Positions 39,123 through 59,222 of a DNA stretch of 64,000 bases are shown piece by piece (within the stretch, counting starts at the first letter, position 1; every line of letters starts with the position of its first letter). The stretch lies in assembly GCA_903828645.1 (NCBI GenBank), contig CAIKNA010000208.1, forward strand, positions 1,223 through 65,222, given 5' to 3'. Source of the stretch: an uncultured Bacteroidales bacterium. Lineage in GTDB: Bacteria > Bacteroidota > Bacteroidia > Bacteroidales > FEN-979. Both the position numbers and the translations under genes were made by a program. Under the pieces are notes generated by a model. That model saw nothing but the letters and a program-made list of their open reading frames with translations, searched no databases and had not been told where the DNA came from.

Positions 39123-39123
39123 A

Positions 39124-41358
39124 TTACGGATGCACGCTGTTGATGATCTTTATCGGGAAATCGTATTCAACATGATGAACATCCGTGGCGTTATTCAACA
39201 CAGTCTTGTCGCGCACATAAAGGGTGAATACATAAGCGCATGATTCGCCCGGAGCAAGTTTATTGGCAGCAGTGAGAGGCCCTGCAGCAGAAGGCAGGTC
39301 CAGCCATCTCAGGTCAAAACTGAAAAGATTGGTGGAGACAGGGCCTGTTCTGCCGGGCACCGGAACTGACGATATCTTTATCTGTTCCTTTGGTGCGCCT
39401 TGCTTTTGGATGGTGATCCTGTAATTATCGAAGTTATCACTCGGATTGTTGAGATCCCCTGCGATGATCAGCGGATCAAATGCCATCCCATTAATATCCA
39501 CTACCCTGAAATTTGCCGCATCAACCCTGGTATATAGGTCGGAACAGGAAGGGAGATCGCCGATATTATAGATGTTGGCAGTGGGCCAGTCATTATCAAC
39601 CCAGACCCGCTGAATATCATAATAGGAAAAGTTGTTGGTATCCGTGACTTTAAGTAGCAGCGTGTAACGTCCGCTAGGCCCGGTATTCCAGTTCGTCCCG
39701 GAAACAAGCCCTTCAGGGAAATGCATGGTGATCCAGGCACCGTTGAAAAAGAAGGTTACGATATCATCATAGGTATAAAACCCGTTATTTGAGATGAGTG
39801 AACCGGGCCCTTTGAGAATATTCCACTGCCTGAGCTGATCGGGGGTGAAACCGTTGAAACCGGCGCCGAAATCAACATTGCATACGGTTGTAAAGCCATG
39901 AGTCAACGGATCGTATGAAGCCCCGTTTACAGGCTGAGGCGTTGTAAAATTATCGTTGATCACATAAATCCCGTAATCGTTGATCTGTGCATTCGTGCAA
40001 CCAAAAACCCTTGCTGCGCCCCAGATGCCGGCACCAAGGCCAATTGCCCCGATTTCCGCACCTGCAGCATCGGCTACCCGCAATTGTTCGTGCGTGTCGA
40101 CCACATCATGAGCCACGCGGCCACCAACATTCTTGATGTAGACTTCACTTGCCTTGACGGCAAAGGATAGTGTTGCATTGCAGACACTTTTATTTGCCCC
40201 CATCACCGTAAGTCGAATGACAAAAGTCGTCGATGTGATCAGATCGCTGCCGGCATTTTCCAGGGCTTTCTGCAGGAAGATGAAGCCAAGATTGCCGTTC
40301 ATGACACTGTGGGTCCCATTTGCGAGGGAAGGATCGGGGTGGCCAAGATTGTCGGCATAAACGATGGCACCGGCCGAAACATCCCTGGTTCCATTCCAGA
40401 GCAGTTCAAGTTTGTAACTGATCATTCCGCAACCGCTCGCAGTTCCGATAACGGTTAAAAACTTGTCATCCAGCAATTTCATTCCGCTATCGATGCATCC
40501 GGTTGGTTGTACCAGTCCGCAAACCAGTGATCCCTGGGGGCACTCCACGCAGAATTCGATGCAGAAACAATTTGAAGCATTGGTACGGTCGCGGTCATGC
40601 CCGCGCTGACGGTTTTCATTCAGGAGAACAGCGCCGTTGCCTGCTTCGATCCTGAAGTAAAGGTCAGGGCCGGCAGGCCACTCTACATTCAGCCAGCTTA
40701 AAATCGTCTTGCTGAAATCTGCTTCAGTATAATAGATTTTGAAATTACCGTTTGTATCGGTGATTCCATACCCAAGATGATCATCCTGAATAAGATCCAC
40801 ATCATATGCAAACACCTTGACCCCGCCTATTGCGATGTCATTCTTACAATCCCTCACTTTTCCGCAAATGACATAAAACCTGAAAAGCTTCAGTATCCAG
40901 CACCAGAATTTAGCAGGGATTGCATATTCCCAAAAAGCAACCAACCCCCTCAGATTTTCATTTGGTTGGGTTTCCTTCCAGAGTGGCTGAAGGGTTGTGA
41001 TGTGGAATTGAAGCGGTCCGTGAGGTTTAGGTGGATTTAAAATTTCAAATTTAACCGGGACAGATCCGCATTCGAAATCAACATCAAAAGCTCCACCTTC
41101 GTATTTCGTCTTTTCCGACAATTCGATGATAAAATTACCCCCTTCATCGGTCAGCGTTTCAAACAACAACCTCTTTGAAAGGGATTTCAATTCCTCTTCC
41201 GTCCGCTGGTGAAAAGATTCTTTCTCCCGTGATGCAGCCAGCGCTGCCACGTTGGCTGCCGGGTCAACGGAATAAACCCGGATTTTTGCATTGTAAAGAA
41301 AGTCAAAACAATCTCCGCAATAAAATCCCCTGAGATTTCCTTTTAACGAATAATTCAT
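39124..41358 (-). CDS. 744-aa Cys-rich hypothetical protein with two transthyretin/carboxypeptidase-regulatory-like segments, no signal peptide
   Basis: Long ORF. GKVRDC...GVKVFAYDVD...LGYGITDTNGNFKIYY...GPDLYFRI resembles prealbumin-like folds; also CGDC and CFCIEFCVEC. Confidence 0.8.
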   Translation of the reverse strand: MNYSLKGNLRGFYCGDCFDFLYNAKIRVYSVDPAANVAALAASREKESFHQRTEEELKSLSKRLLFETLTDEGGNFIIELSEKTKYEGGAFDVDFECGSVPVKFEILNPPKPHGPLQFHITTLQPLWKETQPNENLRGLVAFWEYAIPAKFWCWILKLFRFYVICGKVRDCKNDIAIGGVKVFAYDVDLIQDDHLGYGITDTNGNFKIYYTEADFSKTILSWLNVEWPAGPDLYFRIEAGNGAVLLNENRQRGHDRDRTNASNCFCIEFCVECPQGSLVCGLVQPTGCIDSGMKLLDDKFLTVIGTASGCGMISYKLELLWNGTRDVSAGAIVYADNLGHPDPSLANGTHSVMNGNLGFIFLQKALENAGSDLITSTTFVIRLTVMGANKSVCNATLSFAVKASEVYIKNVGGRVAHDVVDTHEQLRVADAAGAEIGAIGLGAGIWGAARVFGCTNAQINDYGIYVINDNFTTPQPVNGASYDPLTHGFTTVCNVDFGAGFNGFTPDQLRQWNILKGPGSLISNNGFYTYDDIVTFFFNGAWITMHFPEGLVSGTNWNTGPSGRYTLLLKVTDTNNFSYYDIQRVWVDNDWPTANIYNIGDLPSCSDLYTRVDAANFRVVDINGMAFDPLIIAGDLNNPSDNFDNYRITIQKQGAPKEQIKISSVPVPGRTGPVSTNLFSFDLRWLDLPSAAGPLTAANKLAPGESCAYVFTLYVRDKTVLNNATDVHHVEYDFPIKIINSVHP

Positions 41359-41378
41359 ATTGCTCCTCCTTTTTTTAA

Positions 41379-41409
41379 TGCCTACTCTGTTCGCTTTTCG
41401 GCAACCGCG
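41379..41409 (-). ncRNA. Candidate cis-regulatory leader RNA (H-type pseudoknot), copy 1
   Basis: CGC-GGTTGCCGAAAA-GCG-AAC-AGAGTAGGCA, ending 20 nt before the ATG. A second copy with a compensatory change lies at 56396-56433. Confidence 0.5.
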
Positions 41410-41517
41410 TTTTTATTGATTTTTCATATATTCCGGACAACAATTAAAAGAACATGAACAAAATTAAAACCACTTGATTGTTAAATAATTAACTAACAAA
41501 TATCACGGGTTCGGGTA

Positions 41518-41549
41518 CAAAAATAAAACTACAAAATGAGAATGTCAAG
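41518..41549 (-). promoter_or_regulatory. Promoter of the 744-aa gene: CTTGACAT-N16-TATTTTTG
   Basis: Fits the Bacteroidota -33/-7 layout; same architecture as 56303-56334. Confidence 0.6.
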
Positions 41550-41650
41550 TATATTATGATATTTTTTCATCCATAACATTAATATTTTTTTGTTTTTTTC
41601 ATTTTCCCGGGCACAAATTCTGTTTGGATGATTCGCAAATAAAAACTCCC

Positions 41651-41658
41651 TACCTTTG
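41651..41658 (+). promoter_or_regulatory. -7 promoter box upstream of the acyltransferase
   Basis: TACCTTTG matches TAnnTTTG. Confidence 0.5.
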
Positions 41659-41739
41659 GTCATTGAAACTTCGTACGCCGGTGATCTCCTCACGGATAAG
41701 GACGGTCAGCCGGAAAAGGAATTTGTAAAGGGTTAACAG

Positions 41740-42534: not shown

Positions 42535-42568
42535 CCCTTCCCTGGTGGAGTCAATAATACTACAACCT

Positions 42569-44047: not shown

Positions 44048-44062
44048 ATTATATGTTTCATC

Positions 44063-45670: not shown

Positions 45671-45693
45671 TGTTTTTCTTTTAAGGTTTGGGT

Positions 45694-45744
45694 GTAGCCC
45701 CGTGATACAGCACGGGGGTATGTCCCGCGCTGAAGCGCGGGGTT
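45694..45744. repeat. REP-like doublet of GC-rich palindromes
   Basis: GTAG-CCCCGTG-ATACAG-CACGGGG followed by CCCGCGCT-GA-AGCGCGGG. Confidence 0.55.
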
Positions 45745-47104
45745 AAAGGGATACCATGACCTGCAGTTCGCGGGGTTTCTTCCACATCCCCCGGGTAAAA
45801 TCAGGAAATTTCAGGGGTTTACCCGCTTTGGCGATGGATTGTTCGCTGAGCACCCTCACAGCGCTCATCAGAACTCCATCGTACACATCCATATCGGGCT
45901 CAACCCCCTTCAACAGGGCGTTTACGAGGCGGTAATCCTCGATGTAATCCATCCCGCCATGGCCGGCTCCTTTGCTGGCTGTTTCCAGCTCCTCCCAGAT
46001 CGGGTGCTGGTATTTCTTCAGGTAATCATTGATCGGCTCCCACTGGTCATCTGTTTTACTGACACCTTCGATGTATATCTTCGGTTCAGGGTATTTGCGC
46101 ACAATCCCTTTTGTACCCTGGATAAGGATATTGCGACTATATGGACGTGGCAAACTGGTATCGTGGGTAACCACGATGGTCTCCCCGTTCATGGTTCGGA
46201 TCATGGTTGTGACGACATCACTGAGGATAAACTTTTCCTTCGCCTGGGAACTTTCCGGGCCGAATTTATCGATGGCGTAGGCATGGAGCCCTCTTGTTTT
46301 GGAGCCGAACGAGACCATGAAGTCGAAATAGTTTCCCCGGTTGATATCCAGGCATTGCATGACCGGTCCCAATCCATGGGTAGGATAGAGATCGCCGTTG
46401 TGGTGCATGGAGAAATCGCGCCGCCATACGCCTTCGCCTTCCATATCGTGTTTGACCTCACGCAAATCGTGAAGATAACCACATTCGGCATGCACCATCT
46501 CCCCGAACAATCCTTTCCTGACCATGTTCAAAATCATCATCTCCACCTTGTCGTAGTTGCAGTTTTCCATCATAATGCAATACTTCCCCGTTTTTTCCGA
46601 TGTCTCAACAAGCGCCCAGCAATCGTCCATGGTGAGGGCTGCCGGAACCTCCGTTGCTGCATGTTTGCCGTTTTTCATGGCGGCAAGGCAAACGGGAACA
46701 TGCCATTGCCAGGGTGTCGCCGTGTAAACCAGGTCGAGATCGTTCCGCTCACACAACCGCTGCCAGTCATATTCATCTTTCGAATACCCTTCGGGCCGTT
46801 TGAACCCGGCTTTTTCAACCATATCCTGGGCGCGCTGAACCTTCGCCGGGATAATGTCGCAAACTGCAACAATTTCAGCACCTTCAACCTTAAGGAGGTT
46901 TTCAACATGTGAAGTACCCTGTAGTCCGACCCCCACATACCCGATACGTACTTTTTGCATCGGGCTTCCAACAGGAGCCGGAGTGTATGGAGTGCTTATT
47001 CGTTCAGGCTGAATGGCAGCCATGAGGTTGTCACTCACTGCAAGCCCGACCCCGGTTGCAGCAATGGTTTTGATAAAATCCCTGCGGTTAAGTTGATTTT
47101 TCAT
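45743..47104 (-). CDS. GH109 NAD-dependent glycosidase (alpha-N-acetylgalactosaminidase-like) with Tat signal
   Basis: NRRDFIK Tat motif; ATPWQWH, ATEVPAA, MMENCNY, LYPTHGLGP, GHGGMD. Confidence 0.9.
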   Translation of the reverse strand: MKNQLNRRDFIKTIAATGVGLAVSDNLMAAIQPERISTPYTPAPVGSPMQKVRIGYVGVGLQGTSHVENLLKVEGAEIVAVCDIIPAKVQRAQDMVEKAGFKRPEGYSKDEYDWQRLCERNDLDLVYTATPWQWHVPVCLAAMKNGKHAATEVPAALTMDDCWALVETSEKTGKYCIMMENCNYDKVEMMILNMVRKGLFGEMVHAECGYLHDLREVKHDMEGEGVWRRDFSMHHNGDLYPTHGLGPVMQCLDINRGNYFDFMVSFGSKTRGLHAYAIDKFGPESSQAKEKFILSDVVTTMIRTMNGETIVVTHDTSLPRPYSRNILIQGTKGIVRKYPEPKIYIEGVSKTDDQWEPINDYLKKYQHPIWEELETASKGAGHGGMDYIEDYRLVNALLKGVEPDMDVYDGVLMSAVRVLSEQSIAKAGKPLKFPDFTRGMWKKPRELQVMVSL

Positions 47105-47138
47105 GGAGCGGTGATGTTTTTTTCAAATGTACATAAAT

Positions 47139-47181
47139 AAAAAAAACGAGGCAGTCATAAAGATACGGCTGCCTCGTTTTT
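47139..47181 (-). terminator. Terminator after the cytochrome c gene / cco cluster (possibly bidirectional)
   Basis: AAAAACGAGGCAGTC...GGCTGCCTCGTTTTT with A/T tracts on both sides. Confidence 0.75.
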
Positions 47182-47197
47182 ATATGATACGTGAATT

Positions 47198-47680
47198 TTA
47201 TTTCTTCCTGGGTTTAATCTCGACACCCTGGACCTCAGCCAGCGTGACGAATCCGTTTTTATTGCCAAAATTGTTCAATACGTAGTTGATAATCGCCACG
47301 GCATCTTCCTTGGTATCGACCTGGGGGACCATCTCCTGGGTGAATACTTTTCCATTCACGGTCATATCAAGTTTAGAACCATTGAGGGTTTGAGCAACAG
47401 CCCTCACTTTGTCTGCCAGCAGGTAATCTGCCTTGGACAACGGAGGGAATACATTTTCAATACCCAATCCCGTAACCTGATGGCATACGGTGCATTTGGT
47501 TTTATAAATCTCTTCGCCCCTGGGCATCATGGCCTGGATATCGGCAGGCAGATCAGCATAGGGTCCGGCGGCTTTAACGGCACTCTGATCAGCAGCAGCA
47601 GGCTGACTTCCTCCGCCGCAGGAGGTCATGATAAGTGTAATTGCAAACAATGAAATCAGAAAAATCGTAGTTCTTTTCAT
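47198..47680 (-). CDS. Monoheme cytochrome c lipoprotein
   Basis: Lipobox MTSC; CTVCH heme motif, VFPPL..ADYL, candidate Met ligand in QEMVPQ. Confidence 0.9.
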   Translation of the reverse strand: MKRTTIFLISLFAITLIMTSCGGGSQPAAADQSAVKAAGPYADLPADIQAMMPRGEEIYKTKCTVCHQVTGLGIENVFPPLSKADYLLADKVRAVAQTLNGSKLDMTVNGKVFTQEMVPQVDTKEDAVAIINYVLNNFGNKNGFVTLAEVQGVEIKPRKK

Positions 47681-47766
47681 GGGATTTTAGTTTTAAAAGG
47701 ATGTTATAGGTTTGACAAACAGTTAAACGGTTTTCATGTACAAAATTATTCAATTTTTTTGAATTC

Positions 47767-48486
47767 TCAAGGGCAACATTTGGGTTTTTGAAGTTGTTCG
47801 GTCTTTTGTTTTTGATCCTGGTCCATTTTCGGGCTGACATAAGGAATTCCGAGATTCATCCCCCTGACTACAAACAGCATACCGATGAGGAGGATGAGAA
47901 AAGGAATTAATTTCTGCACCCTCCGGCGAAAAGCCATACTGATGACATTCCCCAGCAATGCAAGGGTAAACATCGCCGGTACGGTTCCCAATCCGAAAAC
48001 CATCATGTATAAGGCTCCATGCGCAGGGCTGGTCGAAACCAATGCACCCGCCAGGGCGATGTAAACCAATCCGCAGGGAAGCAATCCGTTGAGCAGTCCG
48101 ATGACCCATGATGAGAGGTAGGTTCGTAAACCAAAAAAACGTCCAAAAAACTTTTTAAATCCTGTAAAAAAGGTGTCAAGTCCCCCGGTCAGGGCCGATC
48201 TGTGAAAAAGTACCGGGAAAGCGACGCTCATAATCATGACAGTTCCGGCACCGATGGAGACCCACTGCTGGATTCCCCAGATATGGATTCCCATCCCCAG
48301 CAGGCCAAAGATCAGCCCGAGAAAAATATAGGTTGAGGCACGGCCCAGGTTGTACAGCAACCCGCTGATAATCCTGGTACGCCAGGAGTTTTCTTTCAAT
48401 GGCAGGGATATGGCTATGGGTCCACACATGCCCATGCAGTGAAAACTACCCAGTAACCCGACAATCAAAGGGGGCCAAAAATCCAT
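47767..48486 (-). CDS. TauE/SafE (DsbD_2)-type cbb3 assembly membrane protein
   Basis: GSFHCMGMCGP, YNLGR, NGLLPCGLVY, FGLGTVP; start at ATG 48486. Confidence 0.88.
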   Translation of the reverse strand: MDFWPPLIVGLLGSFHCMGMCGPIAISLPLKENSWRTRIISGLLYNLGRASTYIFLGLIFGLLGMGIHIWGIQQWVSIGAGTVMIMSVAFPVLFHRSALTGGLDTFFTGFKKFFGRFFGLRTYLSSWVIGLLNGLLPCGLVYIALAGALVSTSPAHGALYMMVFGLGTVPAMFTLALLGNVISMAFRRRVQKLIPFLILLIGMLFVVRGMNLGIPYVSPKMDQDQKQKTEQLQKPKCCP

Positions 48487-48487
48487 T

Positions 48488-48931
48488 TCAGGGAATAAAA
48501 ATATCCTGTTCCTTATAAAATTCCTTCCCCCCTGAAGACCAGTCGACCTTGACGACATAACGGCCCTTTGATAACCTGTTCAACGGGATGGCCTGGGTTA
48601 AGGAAGTATCAGCCGAAACCGGGAGGATGATGTCAAGCTTTTCATCTGAAGGCCGGTAGATGTTGATATTGCCGGTAAGTTTCTTCCCATGGAAATCAAC
48701 CGGGAACTGCATGACCAGGTTCGATCTGTCGAGTTTCACCTGCAATTGCTCCGTCAGGGCATTGGCATTCCTCATTTTCACAAGTTTCTCCTCATAGCGG
48801 AGCTCCTTCGGATAATAGTCTTCCTCAACCATGTTAAATTTCTGGTGTTGCGCATAAAAGATAAAGGCAACGCATGCGCCCAGAAAAAGAACAATTACGA
48901 TAAAAATACCGGTCCCCCAATTCCACTTCAT
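48488..48931 (-). CDS. ccoH: FixH/CcoH family protein
   Basis: MKWNWGTGI, EDYYPKEL, IYRPSDEKLD; position after ccoG. Confidence 0.85.
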   Translation of the reverse strand: MKWNWGTGIFIVIVLFLGACVAFIFYAQHQKFNMVEEDYYPKELRYEEKLVKMRNANALTEQLQVKLDRSNLVMQFPVDFHGKKLTGNINIYRPSDEKLDIILPVSADTSLTQAIPLNRLSKGRYVVKVDWSSGGKEFYKEQDIFIP

Positions 48932-48937
48932 GAAACA

Positions 48938-50344
48938 CTATTTATTCGGGCCGACAAAAGTCGCCCTGGTTTGGTCAAGTTGCTTTCCACCGGAAAATAT
49001 ACCGATGTCCACTTCTGTTTTACTTCCTGTAAGCCTGCCACGGTCGATCAGAAGGAAGAAAACCACCTCTCCAAGCGATTGCCTGGAAATGACAGGTGCA
49101 TTTCCGATAACCTTCACCTCTCCCGGTCCCGAAAGGAGGCGGATCTCGAGAGGCAGGTCCCTGGCAGTCTTGTTAACGACCTTTACGCTGTATAAATTGC
49201 TTATCTTTCCTCCCTCCTGCTCCTGGAACAACATCCCCGGAGAACGAAGCACCGTAGCCTCAACCGGGTTGCGCGAGACCAGGAAATAGGTGAGCGCAAC
49301 CAGCAAAGCTGCCAGTACGATGGTATAACCGGCAGAACGGATGGTGTAATGCCATGGTTTCTTGTCGGCGATCATCTTTTCTGATGCGTACCTAATCAAG
49401 CCGGGTCGAAACCCGACTTTAGTCATCATGTCATCGCAGGCATCGATGCAGCATGCGCAGTTGATGCACTCAAGTTGCGTACCGTTGCGGATGTCGATCC
49501 CTGTAGGACAAACCGCCACGCATTGGTTGCAGTCGATGCAATCTCCTTTTTTGGTTTCGGCCCTGATCTCGCTTTTCCGAAGCTGTCCCCGCTCCTCTCC
49601 CCTGGCATAATCATAAGAAATTACGACAGTTTCACGGTCCAGCAGCACACCCTGTAACCGGCCATATGGACAAACGATGGTGCACACCTGTTCGCGAAAC
49701 CAGGAGAAGATGAAGTAGAAAATAAATGAAAAGAGAGCCATGCCTGTCAGTCCAGCCAGGTGATTCGCAGGATTTTCCGACACCATTTTCAGCCATTCAT
49801 CCGATCCCATGAGATACATCAGGAAATAGTTGCTGATGATGAAGGAGAGCATGTAAAACAGGCCATGTTTCAACACCCGTCGAAAGATTTTATCCGCGTT
49901 CCACGGCCTGGCAGCCAGCTCCTTCTGGCGATGGGCATCTCCATCGATCCAGTATTCGATGCGGCGGAAGAACACCTCCATGAAAATCGTCTGGGGGCAG
50001 GCCCATCCGCACCATATCCGTCCGTATGTAACGGTAAAGAGAATGATGAAGACCATCAGGGCGATCATGCCGATAAAAAAGAGGTTGAAATCCTGGGGCC
50101 AGAACTGCACGCCGAATATTACAAATGTCCTGTGCAGGAAATTAAAGAGCAGCAGTTGCTGACCGTTGACCTTGATAAAGGGTGCTGAAAAAAAGAACAT
50201 CATCAGCACGATGCCGGTAATATTCCTGGCAGTGGTCAGCGTCCCCTTTGGTTTCTTCGCAAAAACCCAAAGTCGTTTGCCGCTTTCGTCGATGGTATAG
50301 AGCCTGTCGCGAAAGCCGCCGGAGGAATCATCCTGATTTTGCAT
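48938..50344 (-). CDS. ccoG: Cytochrome c oxidase accessory protein CcoG/FixG
   Basis: GRIWCGWACPQT, CTIVCPYGRLQ, CIDCNQCVAVCP, CINCACCIDAC. Confidence 0.95.
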   Translation of the reverse strand: MQNQDDSSGGFRDRLYTIDESGKRLWVFAKKPKGTLTTARNITGIVLMMFFFSAPFIKVNGQQLLLFNFLHRTFVIFGVQFWPQDFNLFFIGMIALMVFIILFTVTYGRIWCGWACPQTIFMEVFFRRIEYWIDGDAHRQKELAARPWNADKIFRRVLKHGLFYMLSFIISNYFLMYLMGSDEWLKMVSENPANHLAGLTGMALFSFIFYFIFSWFREQVCTIVCPYGRLQGVLLDRETVVISYDYARGEERGQLRKSEIRAETKKGDCIDCNQCVAVCPTGIDIRNGTQLECINCACCIDACDDMMTKVGFRPGLIRYASEKMIADKKPWHYTIRSAGYTIVLAALLVALTYFLVSRNPVEATVLRSPGMLFQEQEGGKISNLYSVKVVNKTARDLPLEIRLLSGPGEVKVIGNAPVISRQSLGEVVFFLLIDRGRLTGSKTEVDIGIFSGGKQLDQTRATFVGPNK

Positions 50345-50345
50345 A

Positions 50346-50933
50346 TCACTTGCAGGGCTCGCCCTGCGGTGCTTTGGGATTTGGTGGTGTGGTGCCCTTG
50401 AGCGTCATCACAAAGCTGGCAACCTTTTTGATCTGATCGCCGGTAAGTTGTGTTTTCCAGGAGATCATCCCCTTTTCAGGGGCCCCGTTTGTGATGATGT
50501 TTACCACGTCACCGTAGGCGCAACCATGAATGGAGAAATTGTCGGTAAGGTTCGGTCCAACGAGTCCCTGCCCTCCATCGAGATGACAGACTTTACATTG
50601 TTTCAGCCAGATCTCCTTGCCGGCATCCAGGCTGGCCTGGTCGGTAAGGGCAACAAGGGTTGAGGCATCAACCGGTGCCGGCTGACCGGGGGAAAGCACG
50701 CCGGCCGCAGCCATCTCATTCTTATATTCATCCTGCTGGTAAGGGGCTATTTTGAAAACATCGTAGGCGAAAATATAAACCACCGACCAGACGATGGTGA
50801 TGATGAAGAGCCACACCCACCATTTCGGCAGGTTGTTGTCCAATTCCCTGATGTTGTCATATTCGTGACCCGACAACAGTTTATCACCGGTCAGTTCATC
50901 CTTTTCAACGGTTTTATGTTCGTTCATTTCCAT
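50346..50933 (-). CDS. ccoP: cbb3 oxidase subunit III (short, monoheme)
   Basis: HEYDNIRELDNNLPKWW, CKVCH, GPNLTD, KGMISW. Confidence 0.92.
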   Translation of the reverse strand: MEMNEHKTVEKDELTGDKLLSGHEYDNIRELDNNLPKWWVWLFIITIVWSVVYIFAYDVFKIAPYQQDEYKNEMAAAGVLSPGQPAPVDASTLVALTDQASLDAGKEIWLKQCKVCHLDGGQGLVGPNLTDNFSIHGCAYGDVVNIITNGAPEKGMISWKTQLTGDQIKKVASFVMTLKGTTPPNPKAPQGEPCK

Positions 50934-50944
50934 AGAAAATATTA

Positions 50945-51136
50945 TTAAATATCCTGAATTTCATCTGATTCCTTTGAAAAATCTTCCAGGGGCATGCGGC
51001 TGAAATCCTCCACATCCTTGCTTTTTATTGAAAAGGTGTGAAGAAGCAGGAGGGCAAAGAAAACCACGAAAAATATCATGGAAAACAACCCGTAACTTTC
51101 AATGCCCCCAACTGTTTTAAAAATATCGCGCAGCAT
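50945..51136 (-). CDS. ccoQ: cbb3 oxidase small subunit CcoQ/FixQ
   Basis: 63 aa, single TM, SRMPLE; between ccoNO and ccoP. Confidence 0.8.
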   Translation of the reverse strand: MLRDIFKTVGGIESYGLFSMIFFVVFFALLLLHTFSIKSKDVEDFSRMPLEDFSKESDEIQDI

Positions 51137-51144
51137 GTTCCCGG

Positions 51145-53304
51145 TTATTTACCTGTGATGGTCGCAGTTGGCATACCGGCAGCATGGACATCCTTGCCCA
51201 GCCTCTGCAGGTAAGCAATCATGGCGATGATCTCCTTGGTAGGCTCAACCTGGATGCCCTGGCTCTTCAGGTCGTCTGCAATTCCCTTTGCCTGGATCAT
51301 AAGGTCATCATTGGCGATTTTATCGTATCCTGCCGGATAGGGCACACCGAGAAACTGCATCACACGGATCTTCTTCGCGGTAGTGGAGAGATCAAGATCA
51401 TCGGTGATCAGCCACTTGTAAACCGGCATGATCGACTGTTCGTTCAACCGCTGAGGGTTCAGCATGTGGTTGTAGTGCCATGAGTTGGGTTTATACTGCC
51501 GGCCGTTTACGACTCCCTCCCTTGACAGGTCCGGCCCGTTGCGTTTAGAACCCCACTGAAACGGATGATCATATACATATTCGCCGGCTTTGGCATATTC
51601 ACCGTATCGTTCCGTTTCAGACCTGAAAGGCCTGACTTGCTGTGAATGACACGTATAGCATCCTTCGCGTACATAGATGTCGCGGCCCTGCAATTCCAGA
51701 GGCGTGTATGGTTTTACACTCGCAATGGTGGGAATGTTTGTTTTTACCAGGTACAGCGGCACAATTTCTATGAGCCCCCCGATCAGAATGGCAACCAGAG
51801 CCACGAGGATAAACTGGACAGGCCTGCGCTCAAGCCAGCGGTGGATTCCTTCGCCTGAGCCGCGTTTGCCTTGTGTCTTAGCCAATGCAGGAGCCGATGC
51901 CGCCTCTTCGGGCAGGAATTTCCCGGCCCTGACGGTCAGGATGAGGTTGTAAATTCCAAGTACGATACCCACGATATACAGCCCTCCCCCGATGGCACGG
52001 GTGGCATACATGGGCTTCAGCTGGGTAACGGTTTCCAGGAAATTAGGGTATTTGAGGAATCCGTCGGCAGTAAATTCTTTCCACATGGAAGCCTGGGTAA
52101 TGGCGCCCCAGTATAAAGGGACGGCATAAAAAATGATTCCAAGAGTACCGATCCAGAAGTGAAGATTTGCAATTTTCCTGGAATACAACTGGGTTTGAAA
52201 CATCCTGGGAATCAGATAATAAAGCACAGCGAAGGTTAGAAAACCATTCCATCCGAGTGCACCGATGTGGGCGTGGCCCACAGTCCAGTCGGTAAAATGA
52301 GAAATCGCATTCACCGTTTTGGTCGACATCATCGGACCTTCGAAGGTCGACATTCCGTAAGCAGTGACAGCCACAACCATGAACTTCAGCACAGGATCCT
52401 CACGAACACGGTCCCATGCGCCACGCAAGGTAAGCAGTCCGTTGACCATTCCTCCCCATGACGGGGCGATGAGCATCACCGAGAAAACGACTCCCAGCGA
52501 TTGGGCCCACCCCGGCAAAGCGCTGTACAAAAGATGGTGAGGGCCTGCCCATATATAGAGAAAGATCAGCGCCCAGAAATGGACGATCGACAACCGATAA
52601 GAGTAAATAGGGCGGTTGGCAGCTTTGGGTAGGAAATAGTACATCAATCCCAGGAATGGGGTTGTCAGGAAAAATGCAACCGCGTTGTGGCCGTACCACC
52701 ACTGGACCAGCGCATCCTGTACCCCGGCATAGATGGGATAGCTTTTAAAAAGGTTCACGGGGATTGCGAGGCTGTTGGTAACGTGCAACACCGTAATGGT
52801 CACGAAGGTGGCCAGGTAAAACCAGATGGCAACATAGATATGCTGGGTTCTGCGTTTGAGGATCGTTCCGATCATGTTGGCGCCAAAAACCAGCCATATC
52901 ACGGCCACAAGAATGTCGATGGGCCATTCCAGCTCGGCATACTCCTTGCCGGTGGTCATCCCGCATGCAAAAGTCACAGCTGCCAGCACGATGATGAGTT
53001 GCCAGCCCCAGAAGTTTATCTTGCTCAGCAGGTCGTTGAACATCCTGGCTTTGCAAAGCCGTTGGAGGGAATAGTAAATCCCTGTAAACATCCCGTTGCC
53101 GACAAATGCAAATATGACTGCATTCGTATGGATCGGCCGGATACGGCCAAAAGTGGTATACGGGATACCGAAAGTAAGCGCTGGCCAGATGAATTGCAAC
53201 GCCAGTAACAGTCCGACAACCATACCGACCACACCCCAGAAGAGTGTGGCATAGGCAAAGTTTTTTACAATTTTGTTGTCATAGTAAAATGTCTGATTTT
53301 CCAT
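51145..53304 (-). CDS. ccoN: cbb3 oxidase fused subunit I/II (CcoN-CcoO)
   Basis: RPIHTN, QWWYGHNAVAF, WAGPHHL, GHAHIG; C-terminal CYTCHSQ and WGSKRNGPDL. Confidence 0.97.
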   Translation of the reverse strand: MENQTFYYDNKIVKNFAYATLFWGVVGMVVGLLLALQFIWPALTFGIPYTTFGRIRPIHTNAVIFAFVGNGMFTGIYYSLQRLCKARMFNDLLSKINFWGWQLIIVLAAVTFACGMTTGKEYAELEWPIDILVAVIWLVFGANMIGTILKRRTQHIYVAIWFYLATFVTITVLHVTNSLAIPVNLFKSYPIYAGVQDALVQWWYGHNAVAFFLTTPFLGLMYYFLPKAANRPIYSYRLSIVHFWALIFLYIWAGPHHLLYSALPGWAQSLGVVFSVMLIAPSWGGMVNGLLTLRGAWDRVREDPVLKFMVVAVTAYGMSTFEGPMMSTKTVNAISHFTDWTVGHAHIGALGWNGFLTFAVLYYLIPRMFQTQLYSRKIANLHFWIGTLGIIFYAVPLYWGAITQASMWKEFTADGFLKYPNFLETVTQLKPMYATRAIGGGLYIVGIVLGIYNLILTVRAGKFLPEEAASAPALAKTQGKRGSGEGIHRWLERRPVQFILVALVAILIGGLIEIVPLYLVKTNIPTIASVKPYTPLELQGRDIYVREGCYTCHSQQVRPFRSETERYGEYAKAGEYVYDHPFQWGSKRNGPDLSREGVVNGRQYKPNSWHYNHMLNPQRLNEQSIMPVYKWLITDDLDLSTTAKKIRVMQFLGVPYPAGYDKIANDDLMIQAKGIADDLKSQGIQVEPTKEIIAMIAYLQRLGKDVHAAGMPTATITGK

Positions 53305-53307
53305 ATG

Positions 53308-53517
53308 TTATTGGTTTGGTAATTGTTCATTCATCAATTTGGCTGCCGGGGTTGCCTGTTCGGTTGTTTCCCGGGGTTTATCATCGTCAAAAAGTATTCT
53401 GACCGAAGCGCTGTATGTATCGTCGTATTGTCCGTTGCGCACCGACCAGAAAAACGCTGCCAGGAAACCGCCGGCAAGCACCACACTAAAAGCAACAAGG
53501 ACAAGGATTACACTCAT
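53308..53517 (-). CDS. ccoS: cbb3 oxidase assembly protein CcoS
   Basis: FFWSVRNGQYDD...RILFDD. Confidence 0.92.
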   Translation of the reverse strand: MSVILVLVAFSVVLAGGFLAAFFWSVRNGQYDDTYSASVRILFDDDKPRETTEQATPAAKLMNEQLPNQ

Positions 53518-53617
53518 ATTATTTCTCCTGAAGGCAAAATAAAGATTAAAGTATCAAATTTCCAAAATAGCAGCAGTGAAATACCTCGAATTCAAGAAAT
53601 TTATATTCAGTCTAAAT

Positions 53618-56050
53618 TCATGATCTTCCTTCAAACTTACTAAAACGGGCTGATACAAAAACAGATAGCGTAACAAAAGCAACAATTGTTACGGAACTCA
53701 GGGGCATGAGAATGGCGGAGACCACCGGTGACAAATTGCCCGTGATGGCAAAGCTCAAACCGACAACGTTGTACAAAAAGGAGAGCCCCATGCTGATGAA
53801 GACAATCCTCATGCTGGTGCGGCTAAAATCAAGGAAGTAAGGAAGGTGGCTGAACCGTCCCGACTCCAGGATGGCATCGCAGGCAGGTGAAAAATGGTAG
53901 ATGTCGTCGGCAATGGAGATCCCGCAATCGCTTTCTCGCAGGGCGCCTGCATCATTCAGCCCATCGCCGATCATGAGAACCTTTTTTCCCCGGGCTTTCA
54001 AATCGCGGATATATTCGAGTTTCTCCCTGGGCGATTTATTAAAATTCAAATGGTCTCTGGAAGGGAAAAAAGCCAGGAGATTTGGCAATTCGGCATCGTT
54101 ATCACCCGAAAGAAGGTGCAGCTCATACCGCGTTGCAAGTTCCTCCAGAACCTCCTTCATCCCCTCGCGGTATTGGTTGCTGATCCCGATAAACCCTGCT
54201 ATTTCATCGTCAAAGGCGACAAAAACACGACCACCGGCGGCCGTCATGGTCTTCGTTCCTGTGACAAATTCCTCAGAACCGATCTTCAGAAAATGGCCCT
54301 GCACATGGCCTTCAATGCCTTTGGCCGGCACCTCGTTAAACCCAGTAACCGGGAGCGGGGCAAATCCCTGTAGCTGCCTGTATATGGCGACACTGGCGGG
54401 ATGGGTTGAATGCCGCACCAGGGAGGAGATACAATGCAGTTGATCGTGTGAAACGGCAAGCGAGCCGAAATCAGCACCAAAACCATCGTTGCGCGTGATG
54501 GTGCCGGTTTTATCAAATACGATGGTATCAATCCTGGAGAGCGCCTCAACCACCCCGGTTCTCTTGAGATAAAAATTATTCCGCCCGAAAACCCGCATGG
54601 CGCCGCCCAGCGAAAAGGGGTAGGTCATGGCAAGCGCACAGGGGCAGGCTACGATTAGAATGGCTGTGACCACCAGGAAGGCCATGGAGGGGTTGTAACA
54701 CCACCAGAATATCCCCGAAACCGTGGAAAGGAGAAGGATCATCACGGTAAAATACCTGCTGATCACATCCAGGATGGAATCCCAACGGGTCGATTTTTCC
54801 ATGCCAGCCATGTCCTGGTTCCAAAGTTCGGTAAGGTGACTCTGGGCTACTTCACGTTCCACGATCAGTTCTATGGAAGCGCCAGCCTGGCGCCCACCGG
54901 CAAAGATGCGCTCGCCTTCTTTCCTGGCTACCGGCGACGACTCCCCGCTCACGAAACTGTAATCAATGGAGCCATCACCCTTTACCAGCAAGGCGTCAGC
55001 CGGCACCAGTTCCTGGTTTCTGACCAGTATCCGCATCCCGGTCTTCAGGTTTTTGATGGGAATGATCGATTCGGAACCCGAATCAGCGATGATGGTTACC
55101 GCTACCGGAAAATAGGAGCGATAATCCCGTTCAAAAGATAGTGCCTGGTAGGTCTTATCCTGGTACCAGCGCCCGATGGAGAGAAAAAAGACAAGCCCTG
55201 CCAGTGAATCCATAAACCCTGCACCCGTTCCGGAGATGATTTCATAGGCACTGCGAAAAAAAAGAACGAGAATTCCAATGGCAATGGGTACATCAATACT
55301 AACAAACTTCTTTTTCAATCCTTTATAGGCAGAAATGAGAAATACCGACCCTGAATAAAAAGCCACCGGTATGCCAAACAGGATGTTGAGCAACCCGAAA
55401 TTCTGACGCAACAGGTTCTCCACAGCATCATTCACACTGAGGTAACCCGGAAAGCTGAAAAGCATGATATTCCCAAAACAGAACCCTGCAACACCCAGCC
55501 GGTAATAGATCCCGCGGTTGATTTTGCGTTTTGCCTCCTTCTGAAGTGTATCGGTTGTGAGCTGAGGGATATAATTGACAGCGGCCAGCATCTCGATCAG
55601 CTGTCGTAATGATATCCTGGCATCATGAAAGGTGATGACGACCTCCTTTTTAACAAAATTAACGGATGAGTGTATCACCCCGTCGTTAAGCCGCTGAAGG
55701 TTCTCCAGCAGCCAGATGCAGGAACTGCAGTGAATGGCAGGGATGAACAACCTGACTTTGCTTACCCCATCCCCGGTAAACTCCAGCAAATCCCCGCGGA
55801 TCTCCTCGTTGTCGAGATAGGCATACCTGCTGCCAACTTCTCCGTTGCCCGCTTTAAGACCGGGATGAACCTCGTATTTATAATAGTCGCAGGCATTGCT
55901 TTGGCTCAGTATCTCATACACCATTTTACAACCGTTGCAGCAAAAAAGCTTCTCCCGGAAACTGATGGGTACAGTTCCGCAATCCTCCCCGCAATGGTAG
56001 CATTCGTTGGTGTTTTTTGCCGTCTCACGGCCAGCTGTATTTTCAGTCAT
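53618..56050 (-). CDS. ccoI: Cu-translocating P1B-type ATPase CcoI/FixI
   Basis: CYHCG..C, FCCNGC, HCSSC, ACPCAL, DKTGT, GDGLNDA; start at ATG 56050. Confidence 0.93.
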   Translation of the reverse strand: MTENTAGRETAKNTNECYHCGEDCGTVPISFREKLFCCNGCKMVYEILSQSNACDYYKYEVHPGLKAGNGEVGSRYAYLDNEEIRGDLLEFTGDGVSKVRLFIPAIHCSSCIWLLENLQRLNDGVIHSSVNFVKKEVVITFHDARISLRQLIEMLAAVNYIPQLTTDTLQKEAKRKINRGIYYRLGVAGFCFGNIMLFSFPGYLSVNDAVENLLRQNFGLLNILFGIPVAFYSGSVFLISAYKGLKKKFVSIDVPIAIGILVLFFRSAYEIISGTGAGFMDSLAGLVFFLSIGRWYQDKTYQALSFERDYRSYFPVAVTIIADSGSESIIPIKNLKTGMRILVRNQELVPADALLVKGDGSIDYSFVSGESSPVARKEGERIFAGGRQAGASIELIVEREVAQSHLTELWNQDMAGMEKSTRWDSILDVISRYFTVMILLLSTVSGIFWWCYNPSMAFLVVTAILIVACPCALAMTYPFSLGGAMRVFGRNNFYLKRTGVVEALSRIDTIVFDKTGTITRNDGFGADFGSLAVSHDQLHCISSLVRHSTHPASVAIYRQLQGFAPLPVTGFNEVPAKGIEGHVQGHFLKIGSEEFVTGTKTMTAAGGRVFVAFDDEIAGFIGISNQYREGMKEVLEELATRYELHLLSGDNDAELPNLLAFFPSRDHLNFNKSPREKLEYIRDLKARGKKVLMIGDGLNDAGALRESDCGISIADDIYHFSPACDAILESGRFSHLPYFLDFSRTSMRIVFISMGLSFLYNVVGLSFAITGNLSPVVSAILMPLSSVTIVAFVTLSVFVSARFSKFEGRS

Positions 56051-56302
56051 AAATTGAAGGCCTCCAATATCAGGCCGCCGCAAAATTAAACAAAACACTC
56101 CTGTTTTTCAGACTTCACTATGGAGCGAAAATATAGAAACCGGGTGCAACCCGGAATCATTCATCCATATTTTTCTATTATTTCATATATGACATTTCCC
56201 TTAAATATGACCAAATATGGAATAATATTAACTGTTTATCATGCCTTTATTATTCTCTTATCCTAATATTAACATAATTTTTTGTTAAAATTTGTTAATT
56301 TT

Positions 56303-56334
56303 CTTGACATGAAAAAAAAAGCATACTACTTTTG
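56303..56334 (+). promoter_or_regulatory. Promoter of the protease cassette: CTTGACAT-N16-TACTTTTG
   Basis: Bacteroidota -33/-7 layout; the spacer contains an A9 tract. Confidence 0.6.
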
Positions 56335-56395
56335 TCCCGTAATTAGATTGAGTCTTCTTAAGTTAAATTATCAACAGGTTACCAGTTGATTGACA

Positions 56396-56433
56396 ATTGA
56401 CGGCGCAGCTGAAAACCGTTAATAGAGTAAGCA
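56396..56433 (+). ncRNA. Candidate cis-regulatory leader RNA (H-type pseudoknot), copy 2
   Basis: ATTGACGG-CGCAGCTGAAAA-CCGTTAAT-AGAGTAAGCA: 8-bp stem, 12-nt loop, and a tail able to pair with the loop. It ends 27 nt before the ATG. Confidence 0.5.
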
Positions 56434-56460
56434 AAACACCAACCACTAAATCATAAGCAA

Positions 56461-57258
56461 ATGAAAAAAGAAAAAACCGCAACACCGGAGTACAATTTTG
56501 GCTGGGTGCCCGACCTGCCTGATGCCAGGGATTTAATCTACTCTGCCACCCTTTCGGTAATGAAAAAATTAGCTTCAAAAGTTGATTTGAGAAGCAAATG
56601 TCCTCCGGTTTACGATCAGGGGCAATTGGGCAGTTGTACTGCAAACGGCCTGGGTGCAGCCTTTCAGTTTGAACAAATAAAACAAGCCATCCCCGATTGG
56701 GTTCCCTCCCGCTTATTTATTTATTACAACGAAAGGGTGCTGATGAATACCGTGAATTCCGACAGCGGTGCATACATTCGCGACGGCATCAAGACCATGA
56801 ATAAGCAGGGAGTGTGTGCGGAAAAAAACTGGCCCTATGACACTGTAAAATTCACCCAAAAACCACCGGCACTGTGCTATAGCAAAGCAATGACAAACCA
56901 GGTGCTTAGCTATATGAGAGTGAACAACGGAAGCCTGAACCAACTGCAGTCCTGCCTTTCTTCAGGTTTCCCGATCGTATTTGGTTTCTCGGTTTATGAA
57001 AGCTTCAGGAGCATTGGCAAAAACGGGATCATGCCGATGCCAAAACCCACCGAACAAATGCTTGGCGGTCACTGTGTCATGGCTGTGGGCTATGATGATG
57101 CCAAACACATGTTTATTGTCAGGAACAGCTGGGGACCTTCATGGGGCGACAAGGGATATTTCTACATGCCTTATGCCTATATCACCGACACGGCCCGTTG
57201 CGATGATTTCTGGACCATCAGGATGGTTGAACAAGGGGTGGCTGTTAAGAAAAAGTAA
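56461..57258 (+). CDS. Papain-like C1A cysteine protease (xylellain-type), no signal peptide
   Basis: GWVPDLPDARD, VDLR, DQGQLGSCTAN (Gln/Cys), SRLFIYYNER, GGHCV (His), RNSWG (Asn), WGDKGYFYMPY. Confidence 0.93.
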   Translation: MKKEKTATPEYNFGWVPDLPDARDLIYSATLSVMKKLASKVDLRSKCPPVYDQGQLGSCTANGLGAAFQFEQIKQAIPDWVPSRLFIYYNERVLMNTVNSDSGAYIRDGIKTMNKQGVCAEKNWPYDTVKFTQKPPALCYSKAMTNQVLSYMRVNNGSLNQLQSCLSSGFPIVFGFSVYESFRSIGKNGIMPMPKPTEQMLGGHCVMAVGYDDAKHMFIVRNSWGPSWGDKGYFYMPYAYITDTARCDDFWTIRMVEQGVAVKKK

Positions 57259-57343
57259 GCTTATTCCATGCCATATTCTTCTATTTGCGTATATGGTACA
57301 ATTTGCTTTCTGAAATAATTAAACGAATAATATAACCTTAAAG

Positions 57344-58420
57344 ATGAAAAAAATGGCAAATCAACTGAAAAAACCAGAAGATCACGATCACGGATTCATC
57401 GGTTGTTGCATCAAACAGCTGCCAAAGGAGCAATGGGTGGCTGCAGCTGCAAAAGCGATTGAGATCAATCCAAACAATGCCCCGGCCCTTCACCTCCTTA
57501 AACTGGCCATGCCGGATGCTGTTCTTCAGCCTGAACACCTTGCGGTGGTCACCACCAAGTATTGGGGAAGCGGCGGAGTACAACTGACCGTCGGGTTTCT
57601 AGATAATCCACCTGCAGCGCTCCGGACACGCATCCTGTCGCACATGAATGCCTGGGGCGCTTACGCAAATGTCCGTTTTGTCGAATCATCGGTCAATCCG
57701 CAGGTCCGTATAAACAGGGGTGCCGGAGGCGGCTATTGGTCTTACCTCGGTACGGATATTCTCAACATCCCTGCAAACCAGGCGACCATGAACCTGGACA
57801 GTTTTTCGATGACCACAGCCGATTCTGAATTCTACCGGGTAATACGTCATGAAACAGGCCACACACTCGGGTTTCCCCACGAACACATGCGCAGTGAAAT
57901 TGTCAATGCTATCGACTATGAGAAAGCCATTGCCTATTTCATGGCTTCCCAGGGCTGGTCGCGGGACAAGGTGATCGCACAGGTACTTACCCCCCTGGAT
58001 CAATCATCGCTGATTGCAACTGCACAAGCCGATCCCAATTCGATCATGTGTTACTGGCTGCCCGGATCGATCATGAAAAATGGCATCGCCATTCCGGGAG
58101 GTACAAACATTGACACACAGGACGGCCAATTTGCAGGTCTTGTATACCCCAGAAACAGCGGGTTGTTCTCCACCTATTATACCTGGCGGGGATGCGGGAC
58201 CGTGAACCTGAACATCACAAATTCAAACATTCATGCCGGGTCTGCTGTCTATGCCGCCATAAGCGAGTATACCAGCAACCCCAGGCAAACCAGGTTTATC
58301 GGTTCGGCAAGAATGGGAATTTGCAACATTTCGCCTTATGAAGGCGGCGTGCATATCTGGGCGGAGATCAATTGGTCCAGTCCAATCAATGTATGCATCG
58401 ACCTGGCGGTTCGCTCCTGA
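57344..58420 (+). CDS. Astacin-like (M12A-related) metzincin with an unrecognised C-terminal ~80-aa domain, no signal peptide
   Basis: HETGHTLGFPHEH (HExxHxxGxxH), WSYLGTD, Met-turn SIMCY. The C-terminal domain starts at TWRGCG (58181). Confidence 0.88.
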   Translation: MKKMANQLKKPEDHDHGFIGCCIKQLPKEQWVAAAAKAIEINPNNAPALHLLKLAMPDAVLQPEHLAVVTTKYWGSGGVQLTVGFLDNPPAALRTRILSHMNAWGAYANVRFVESSVNPQVRINRGAGGGYWSYLGTDILNIPANQATMNLDSFSMTTADSEFYRVIRHETGHTLGFPHEHMRSEIVNAIDYEKAIAYFMASQGWSRDKVIAQVLTPLDQSSLIATAQADPNSIMCYWLPGSIMKNGIAIPGGTNIDTQDGQFAGLVYPRNSGLFSTYYTWRGCGTVNLNITNSNIHAGSAVYAAISEYTSNPRQTRFIGSARMGICNISPYEGGVHIWAEINWSSPINVCIDLAVRS

Positions 58421-58485
58421 TGAGCAGGTTATCACCAATCATTATGAATGAATATTTTTAAATTAACAACTTAAATATTTATACA

Positions 58486-58866
58486 ATGGATAAAAATAAC
58501 GAAGGCAGTAACATGCCATTAACCGGTCACCAGGCAACCGTTGATGCCAAACAATATATCATTGAAACAAAAAAATCTTCAGCTGTGGGCGCGCCCCTGG
58601 GTCTTGATACAGGCTGGTCCGCCACCTGGAGGGGATGCGGGGTGATCCATCTGAACATCAACTGCCCGACAATCCATGCGGGTTCTACTGTTCTCGTAAG
58701 CCTCAGTGAATATTCCAATACAAGCAATCCTGCCGGGAGCCGTTTTATCGGGGCAGCGAGGTTTGCAATTTACAACATCGCACCGAGGGAAGGCGGGGTC
58801 AATATCTGGGCGGAGGTCAGCTGGCCAAATCCCATCAACATCTTCTTTGGCCTTTTAGTTAATTAA
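58486..58866 (+). CDS. Small protein: ~45-aa leader plus a stand-alone copy of the metalloprotease C-terminal domain
   Basis: Hand alignment gives 46 identities over 79 columns with the C-terminus of 57344..58420. Confidence 0.85.
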   Translation: MDKNNEGSNMPLTGHQATVDAKQYIIETKKSSAVGAPLGLDTGWSATWRGCGVIHLNINCPTIHAGSTVLVSLSEYSNTSNPAGSRFIGAARFAIYNIAPREGGVNIWAEVSWPNPINIFFGLLVN

Positions 58867-58876
58867 AAAATGCAGC

Positions 58877-58912
58877 AAATTCCGGCTTGAACCTTTTTCA
58901 AGCCGGAATTTT
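58877..58912 (+). terminator. Perfect 15-bp hairpin between the domain gene and the inhibitor gene
   Basis: AAATTCCGGCTTGAA-CCTTT-TTCAAGCCGGAATTT. Confidence 0.65.
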
Positions 58913-58922
58913 ACAACCAAAT

Positions 58923-59222
58923 ATGGTAGAAACCATTAATTTACGGCAGGGTGAAAGAACTGCAGTTTCTTTTACAAGCCTGGCAACCGCAGGTTATTCC
59001 TGGCATTTTGAAATAGGGAATGTTGGTGTTATCTCTGTTGAAAAGAGCGTAAACAGCCAGGAGATGCGTAAAATGCCCCTTGGCGCCTCCGTGGAGGAGA
59101 TTTTCACCATCAAAGCCATTCGCATGGGTACCTCCAAATTATTTTTCCGGCAGAGCAGAAGCTGGGAAACTGATGTTGAACCTATACAGTCAAAAACATA
59201 TTACATACAGGTTATTGATTAA
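58923..59222 (+). CDS. Chagasin-family (I42) cysteine protease inhibitor
   Basis: Three inhibitory-loop motifs: LATAGYSW (cf. NPTTGYxW), LGAS (cf. GxGG), RSWE (cf. RPWE). About 99 aa, no signal peptide; start at ATG 58923. Confidence 0.8.
   Translation: MVETINLRQGERTAVSFTSLATAGYSWHFEIGNVGVISVEKSVNSQEMRKMPLGASVEEIFTIKAIRMGTSKLFFRQSRSWETDVEPIQSKTYYIQVID

Follow-up and report, generated by a model that had tools for sequence, protein, structure and literature searches.

What is the short sequence that stands before two genes of an uncultured Bacteroidales bacterium, and what does it do to the genes that follow it? The two copies lie on opposite strands of the DNA analysed here (64,000 nt of contig CAIKNA010000208.1, positions 1,223 to 65,222; the window in what follows), and an earlier note made from the letters alone had taken them for a candidate new cis-regulatory RNA, a pseudoknot-like leader which could not be assigned to a known family. 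Compact H-type pseudoknots near the start codon are the architecture of the preQ1-I, SAM-II and guanidine-III riboswitches. The identity of the motif, its structure, its relation to the start codon and the genes behind it are considered in turn below.

The two copies in the window and their Rfam family

Copy 2, on the forward strand at 56396-56433, reads ATTGACGG[CGCAGCTGAAAA]CCGTTAAT AGAGTAAGCA (loop in square brackets) and its tail is separated by 27 nt from the ATG at 56461. Copy 1, on the reverse strand at 41409-41379, reads CGC[GGTTGCCGAAAA]GCG AAC AGAGTAGGCA, with 20 nt between the tail and the ATG at 41358. The features of the two loci, listed in the direction of reading, are:

56327..56334, + strand: candidate Bacteroidota -7 box TACTTTTG, 64 nt 5′ of the copy 2 match
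56399..56433, + strand: copy 2, match to DUF805b RNA (RF02914, 33.1 bits)
56400-56403 with 56416-56419, + strand: family stem of copy 2 (ACGG with CCGT), extendable to 56396-56403 with 56416-56423
56404-56415, + strand: 12-nt loop of copy 2
56408-56410 with 56430-56432, + strand: pseudoknot of copy 2 (GCU with AGC)
56411-56415 and 56424-56429, + strand: conserved boxes GAAAA and AGAGUA of copy 2
56434..56460, + strand: spacer of copy 2, 27 nt, A-rich and G-poor
56461..57258, + strand: gene led by copy 2, a 265-aa papain-family (C1) cysteine peptidase (Peptidase_C1, E 3.3e-19)
41518..41525, - strand: candidate -7 box TATTTTTG, 106 nt 5′ of the copy 1 match
41379..41411, - strand: copy 1, match to DUF805b RNA (RF02914, 43.8 bits)
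41409-41407 with 41394-41392, - strand: stem of copy 1 (CGC with GCG)
41406-41395, - strand: 12-nt loop of copy 1
41402-41400 with 41382-41380, - strand: pseudoknot of copy 1 (GCC with GGC), with a possible extra pair U41403-A41379
41399-41395 and 41388-41383, - strand: conserved boxes GAAAA and AGAGUA of copy 1
41359..41378, - strand: spacer of copy 1, 20 nt, UUAAAAAAAGGAGGAGCAAU
39124..41358, - strand: gene led by copy 1, a 744-aa protein with a weak transthyretin-like (prealbumin-fold) match; GGAGG between motif and ATG

The positions of both copies and their distances from the ATG were confirmed on the sequence as written, and the loop pairs with the tail as had been described, GCC with GGC in copy 1 and GCT with AGC in copy 2. 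The 8-bp stem drawn for copy 2 is real in the sequence, but the conserved family stem comprises its inner 4 bp alone. The Bacteroidota-type -7 box has the consensus TAnnTTTG and a candidate for it lies 5′ of each copy, which makes it plausible that both stand downstream of a promoter. The core pattern GAAAA-N6-14-AGAGTARGC was matched twice in the 64-kb window against a mean expectation of 0.01, derived from 100 dinucleotide-preserving shuffles of the window, none of which gave two matches. Folding energies are not exceptional (MFE z-scores against shuffles of -0.87 for copy 2 and +0.63 for copy 1), and the MFE fold of copy 1 is the pseudoknot helix, not the hairpin. As MFE is not informative for a 35-nt pseudoknot, thermodynamic support was dropped, and the case for structure rests on comparative data and not on stability.

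A scan of the whole window against Rfam 15 at gathering thresholds returned two matches, a tRNA and DUF805b RNA at 41379-41411 on the reverse strand. The latter is copy 1, with 43.8 bits against a gathering score of 35.6 for RF02914. Copy 2 reaches 33.1 bits (E 4.7e-8 for the local stretch and 3.1e-7 genome-wide), 2.5 bits short of the formal cut-off, because the RF02914 model, which lacks the pseudoknot, counts the compensated change from GCC:GGC to GCU:AGC as two penalties. Both copies align over all 35 model positions. In a permissive cmscan (E up to 10) no riboswitch family matched either leader, and the other matches were noise.

Like the family, both copies have a hairpin with a 12-nt loop ending GCCGAAAA, a short linker and the tail AGAGUAGGC, and they lie 5′ of ORFs in Bacteroidota. 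In each the stem belongs to the covarying 3-5 bp type, the loop ends GCYGAAAA, the last three bases of the tail AGAGUARGC pair with the loop triplet, and the motif stands in sense orientation a short distance 5′ of an ORF. Copy 2 differs from the model by its compensated GCU:AGC pair and the 4-bp extension of the stem, and copy 1 by a 3-bp stem and a 3-nt linker. Neither window gene encodes DUF805, and a DUF805-domain gene follows none of the 78 copies of the family set and one of the 31 of the phylum set; the name DUF805b goes back to the circumstances of discovery, and the model does not demand such a gene. It is settled that the two sequences belong, as ordinary members, to a family already catalogued, DUF805b RNA (RF02914). 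The motif is thus known, and routine Rfam annotation detects it, so that neither the novelty claimed in the earlier note nor its statement that no family could be assigned survives the two matches; the note had itself named cmscan against Rfam as a check and tied a hit to the loss of novelty, not of function.

The family is said to originate from the 2017 screen of intergenic regions by Weinberg et al., and Rfam annotates RF02914 as cis-regulatory, in clan CL00115. The main text of PMC5737381 does not name DUF805b. Among the papers listed, those naming DUF805b, the DUF805 RNA motif or RF02914 were method-benchmark papers, and none of those listed on Shine-Dalgarno sequences, pseudoknots and translation initiation in Bacteroidetes deals with DUF805b.

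The same clan contains DUF805 RNA (RF03081), which shares with DUF805b the 3′ module (hairpin, CCGAAAA loop, GAGUAGG tail) and the position before the start codon, but is 68 nt long, has an additional 5′ part and an 11-nt loop, and does not keep the outer pseudoknot pair in five of the six sequences seen. Against this model (68 positions, cut-off 51.1 bits) copy 1 scored 19.8 bits (E 0.9) and copy 2 gave no match. A fifth, weak DUF805b match in the genome of the window, on contig C377, proved to be a member of this sister family with 72.7 bits (G000:C377:10969-11037, + strand; locus L005, about 1468-1536). It is preceded immediately by an XRE-type HTH gene and followed, after 15 nt, by a gene for a 110-aa membrane protein without Pfam match, and five similar sequences in relatives have the conserved 5′ part GUAGAGnCCAGAnAnCACUnnAAAAAAC in common with it.

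A pseudoknot shown by covariation

The first alignment comprised 79 distinct RF02914 hits from a search of the window's taxonomic family. All four stem pairs and two of the three pseudoknot pairs covary in it: pseudoknot pair 1 is G-C in 51 sequences, A-U in 9, C-G in 4, U-A in 4, G-U in 3 and other in 8; pair 2 is C-G in 77; and pair 3 is C-G in 70, U-A in 5 and U-G in 3. The covariation score of 0.480 compares with 0.146 after shuffling (0 of 500 shuffles reached 0.480) and with at most 0.104 when the partners were slid by 1-3 columns. A fourth pseudoknot pair, joining the loop base 5′ of the triplet with the tail base 3′ of its partner, was rejected, being unpaired in 56 of the 79.

Removal of six RF03081 sequences and addition of a phylum sample gave a second set of 106 distinct DUF805b sequences. 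All three pseudoknot pairs are kept in 100 of them, whereas 10,000 shuffles of the tail averaged 60.9 and never exceeded 76; this lends strong support to the loop-tail pseudoknot that had been proposed from the two window copies. Pair 1 is here G-C in 71, U-A in 12, A-U in 10, C-G in 5 and G-U in 4. The pair changed in copy 2 is C-G in 94 of the 106, U-A in 6 and U-G in 5; the single compensatory change first noticed between the two copies thus recurs, and is one instance of a family-wide rule. Where the loop triplet is other than GCC (n=38), it pairs with its own tail in 34 cases and could pair with the consensus GGC tail in only 7. These counts ignore kinship and, related genomes not being independent, overstate the number of evolutionary events; a single lineage could nevertheless not account for all four Watson-Crick types at one pseudoknot position in various genera and in phages. 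We regard it as settled that DUF805b RNA is a compact H-type pseudoknot, and the covarying stem and pseudoknot support the earlier view of a structured mRNA-leader element.

The loop GAAAA and the tail AGAGUA are 95-100% invariant. Four loop bases precede the triplet in 94 of the 105 parsed members, giving the 12-nt loop, and the stem is mostly of 3-5 bp with a linker of 3-5 nt. Copy 1 has 3 bp and 3 nt, as have its orthologues. Copy 2 is the only one of the 105 parsed members with an 8-bp stem and a 0-nt linker; since its outer 4 bp take up the linker that the pseudoknot requires, these four pairs must open for the knot to form. The idea that a longer stem goes with a longer linker was discarded (Spearman -0.21, weakly negative), the total of stem and linker being roughly constant instead.

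A conserved bipartite sequence 5′ of genes could also be a signal in DNA, such as a promoter or a transcription-factor binding site. This we hold to be extremely improbable: stem and pseudoknot compensate in the manner of RNA, G-U pairs included, the motif is always in sense orientation, the 6-14 nt between GAAAA and AGAGTA fit neither a -33/-7 nor a -35/-10 promoter, and at both window copies the candidate -7 boxes lie further 5′.

The invariant bases suggest a further feature of the pseudoknot. The consensus of the sarcin-ricin/loop-E (bulged-G, S-turn) module is AGUA/GAA, and in both copies as well as in the family consensus AGUA stands opposite GAA with a Watson-Crick pair flanking the A.G side. 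As in that module, AGUA is followed in DUF805b by GGC, whose partner GCC directly precedes GAA, and all seven module bases are nearly invariant; the difference is that the two strands are here a hairpin loop and a 3′ tail, that is, the predicted module would lie inside a pseudoknot helix. From the sequence pattern and the strand topology we infer that the three-pair helix is probably extended by a module of the sarcin-ricin/loop-E type which stacks on the hairpin. The 8 loop bases (GCCGAAAA) would then face the 9 tail bases (AGAGUAGGC), one of them bulged, in an extended second helix stacked on the hairpin. Bases so invariant argue against a mere structural insulator.

Position relative to the start codon

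The earlier note had placed the motif close to start codons, and this holds throughout the family: its 3′ end lies 13-27 nt 5′ of an ATG in 95 of 106 cases, with a mode of 19 nt, when an ATG opening an ORF of at least 30 codons is counted as the start. Of the remaining cases, seven fall outside this range and four lack such an ORF in the next 90 nt. The spacers are rich in A (0.51) and poor in G (0.06), with A frequencies, counted from the ATG, of 0.68 at -13, 0.85 at -12, 0.79 at -11 and 0.60 at -3. In Flavobacterium johnsoniae, where initiation proceeds without Shine-Dalgarno (SD) pairing (PMC6847099, PMC13000453), an A-rich stretch from -14 to -11 together with A-3 and A-6 has been shown to promote initiation by ribosome profiling and reporters (Baez et al. 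2019), and the spacers 3′ of DUF805b carry the same A signature. The SD-independent signal is unstructured and generic, whereas DUF805b adds a structured element 6-7 nt further 5′, before only a few genes per genome. A box UUAAA, found in 41 of 95 spacers at varied offsets, was abandoned as a separate element, the generic A-rich element at -13 to -11 explaining it better.

A fixed distance from the promoter was likewise rejected: TAnnTTTG boxes are scattered or absent within 250 nt, which indicates that the motif is not tied to transcription starts. Many copies lie directly 3′ of an upstream gene or in tandem ahead of successive small genes, and a 19-nt spacer is too short for a terminator. 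It follows that the knot lies at the 5′ margin of the ribosome-binding region and keeps its distance from the start codon, not from the transcription start.

The same arrangement could be read as that of an mRNA stability or processing element, in which the knot blocks 5′-to-3′ or endonucleolytic decay, or marks a cleavage that splits polycistronic transcripts. Such a role would account for runs of small genes in which every gene has its own copy (one contig has three, spaced by about 320 nt) and for the many copies just 3′ of an upstream ORF; a decay barrier, on the other hand, needs no narrow spacing from the ATG such as the mode of 19 nt, and we consider this explanation distinctly improbable.

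An SD-like GGAGG was tried as a part of the motif and rejected, since it is kept in the closest Bacteroidales orthologues only and not in Chitinophagaceae. It stands 7-10 nt before the ATG of the 744-aa gene (window 41359-41378, - strand); the orthologues compared are those of L038, L046, L035, L036 and L350-L352. A conserved SD sequence is odd in this group, as Bacteroidota ribosomes are reported to ignore SD sequences except on rpsU (PMC13000453).

Downstream genes, phages and the proposed role of the motif

The genome of the window (5.1 Mb, 409 contigs) has four credible DUF805b copies, the two outside the window being on other contigs with 43.2 and 37.0 bits. In the window's taxonomic family a match was found in 67 of 90 genomes (E up to 1e-3), above the cut-off in 42 of the 90; the matches number 1-8 per genome and cover 10 of 13 genera. 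Of 151 genomes sampled evenly over the phylum, 42 gave a match (E up to 1e-5), and over the family and phylum sets the number of copies per genome is 1-9; none of the 14 control genomes, Bacteroides thetaiotaomicron among them, gave a match at E up to 1e-5. The motif is also common in viral contigs: a scan of these for the exact pattern yielded no fewer than 122 loci, and 123 of the 125 viral matches listed keep at least 3 of the 4 stem pairs, which marks them as true copies. On a group of large phage contigs (about 60-107 kb; L124, L132, L136, L144 and others) a conserved hairpin CTAACAnTCTCGTTGTTAG follows DUF805b and the next 35-70 nt contain no ATG, a sign of either a longer leader or a different use of the RNA on these contigs.

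The C1 peptidase gene behind copy 2 is followed by genes for an astacin-like peptidase, a 126-aa ORF and a chagasin-type I42 inhibitor, the run reaching to 59222 (Astacin and Inhibitor_I42 matches). The stretch 56461-59222 on the forward strand appears to be an operon with a C1 peptidase devoid of a signal peptide and its likely inhibitor (I42) under one leader. Relatives of the 744-aa protein behind copy 1, with 53-72% identity, are encoded in Bacteroidales and Chitinophagales MAGs, and at 13 of the 14 loci encoding them an RF02914 match lies just 5′ of the gene, above the cut-off at 10 of the 13. The link between gene and leader can thus be old, the motif having been kept with the 744-aa relatives across two orders. 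A metatranscriptome run (5% of sampled words) compared with window positions 39100-59000 covered neither motif; its matches were fragments from relatives, within the cbb3 oxidase gene, and a single 163-nt contig identical to part of the astacin-like gene.

The earlier note had called for a tabulation of downstream genes, and this revealed no function common to the family, phylum and phage sets. Of the 78 downstream proteins of the family set 46 are without a Pfam match at 1e-4; the matches of the rest include Peptidase_C1 (7), FGE-sulfatase (4), transthyretin-like (4), astacin (2) and DUF6140 (2), with single matches for an SPFH (Band_7) protein, Hcp, a porin, TPR and others, and the set also contains several Cys-rich or GG-leader peptides of 39-75 aa. 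The phylum set adds a bacteriorhodopsin-like protein, YceI, OmpA, TerB and the one DUF805 protein. Of the 96 distinct phage ORFs, 48 were compared with PHROGs: six are ParB-like, an HNH endonuclease, an endonuclease, a DNA methyltransferase and a lipoprotein each occur once, five ORFs fall into PHROGs families of unknown function and 33 have no match.

Three arrangements recurred beside copies outside the window. Tandem mini-genes in L012 (G047:C2) and L031 (G012:C362), each with a leader copy of its own, encode in order a 39-aa Cys-rich peptide (…GSYSAGCP…CRYCEV…), a 46-aa zinc-ribbon-like peptide and a 104-aa ORF behind a DUF805-type copy, and may be a cassette for small or RiPP-like peptides. 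A near-palindrome TCACCTGTTYAGGTGATTGAC, present once or twice 60-110 nt 5′ of DUF805b before a family of 244-aa lipoproteins in three genomes (L003, about 1390-1440 of G000:C67; L055; L076), looks like a transcription-factor binding site. A GC-rich stretch (…CCGCACTGCGGCTGCnAGCGGGGCGTTRGC…) lies 20-60 nt 5′ of copies in the relatives L022, L045, L043 and L041 and may be another structured element or a repeat.

The lack of a common downstream function and the use by phages argue against a sensor of a specific metabolite, which is less likely than a leader element linked to translation. A broader form of the idea is a translational riboswitch for a widely used signal (a second messenger, an alarmone or an ion), whose ligand would stabilise the pseudoknot beside the ribosome-binding region and so alter translation initiation throughout a scattered regulon. 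In size and H-type architecture DUF805b resembles the preQ1-I and SAM-II classes, eleven nearly invariant unpaired bases could make a ligand pocket, 1-9 copies per genome before secreted or accessory genes recall the c-di-GMP riboswitches, some phages carry riboswitches, and in copy 2 the extended hairpin competes with the pseudoknot, which would give two alternative folds. That competing hairpin, though, is present in 1 of the 105 parsed members, no pathway or transporter theme is seen among the downstream genes, the known riboswitch models gave no match at E up to 10, and a terminator has no room. Some 20 nt, moreover, separate the end of the pseudoknot from the ATG, and the A-rich signal stays free, so that no sequestering platform is visible. 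The likeness to preQ1-I, SAM-II and guanidine-III, which are also small, with a loop-tail pseudoknot, an A-rich linker and a place close to the start codon, therefore stops at the uncovered initiation signal, the downstream genes without shared function and the absence of a model match, and a riboswitch seems to us rather unlikely.

We judge it similarly doubtful, and on the unlikely side, that the motif is the operator of a conserved RNA-binding regulator, a protein that, bound to the S-turn pseudoknot, would control a post-transcriptional regulon of accessory genes, either as repressor or as activator. Sarcin-ricin/loop-E modules are typical platforms for proteins, and the strict sequence conservation over the phylum and the scattered gene set would both agree with an operator. 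No candidate protein is encoded beside the copies, and phages from many samples use the motif, so that the partner would be needed in every host. The idea overlaps with the explanation favoured below, in which the partner may also be a protein.

The fixed distance from the ATG, the independence from promoters, the absence of a gene theme and the use by phages together favour a cis-acting initiation element with a universal partner. We put forward, with confidence about evenly divided, that DUF805b is an H-type pseudoknot which acts in cis on the translation initiation of the next gene and is recognised by such a partner; the S-turn module, translation as the level of action and the partner are the inferred parts of this explanation. 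The knot ends about 20 nt 5′ of the start codon, just 5′ of the A-rich signal at -14 to -11, and would present a rigid, sequence-specific structure to something found in every Bacteroidota cell, possibly the 30S platform/bS1 region or a conserved RNA-binding protein. DUF805b would accordingly be a portable expression element, used alike by accessory genes and phages. The phage genes behind the motif, among the matches listed, are early or accessory ones and not the most highly expressed structural genes, and therefore give no support to a simple high-expression enhancer.

A more specific version, which we hold only tentatively, as possible but open to considerable doubt, sees in DUF805b a structured substitute for the SD sequence, an S-turn pseudoknot that would dock, about 20 nt 5′ of the start codon, on the 30S platform, on bS1 or on a platform protein. 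Selected host and phage genes would in that case gain efficient or conditional initiation on SD-blind ribosomes. The family poses the problem of a 35-nt RNA, conserved over a phylum and held at a fixed distance from the start codon, which stands before genes of every kind and is reused by phages in bacteria whose ribosomes ignore SD sequences. If DUF805b is an element on which the ribosome or a factor docks, it would account for the selection of particular Bacteroidota mRNAs for translation and would provide a compact portable expression part for these bacteria.
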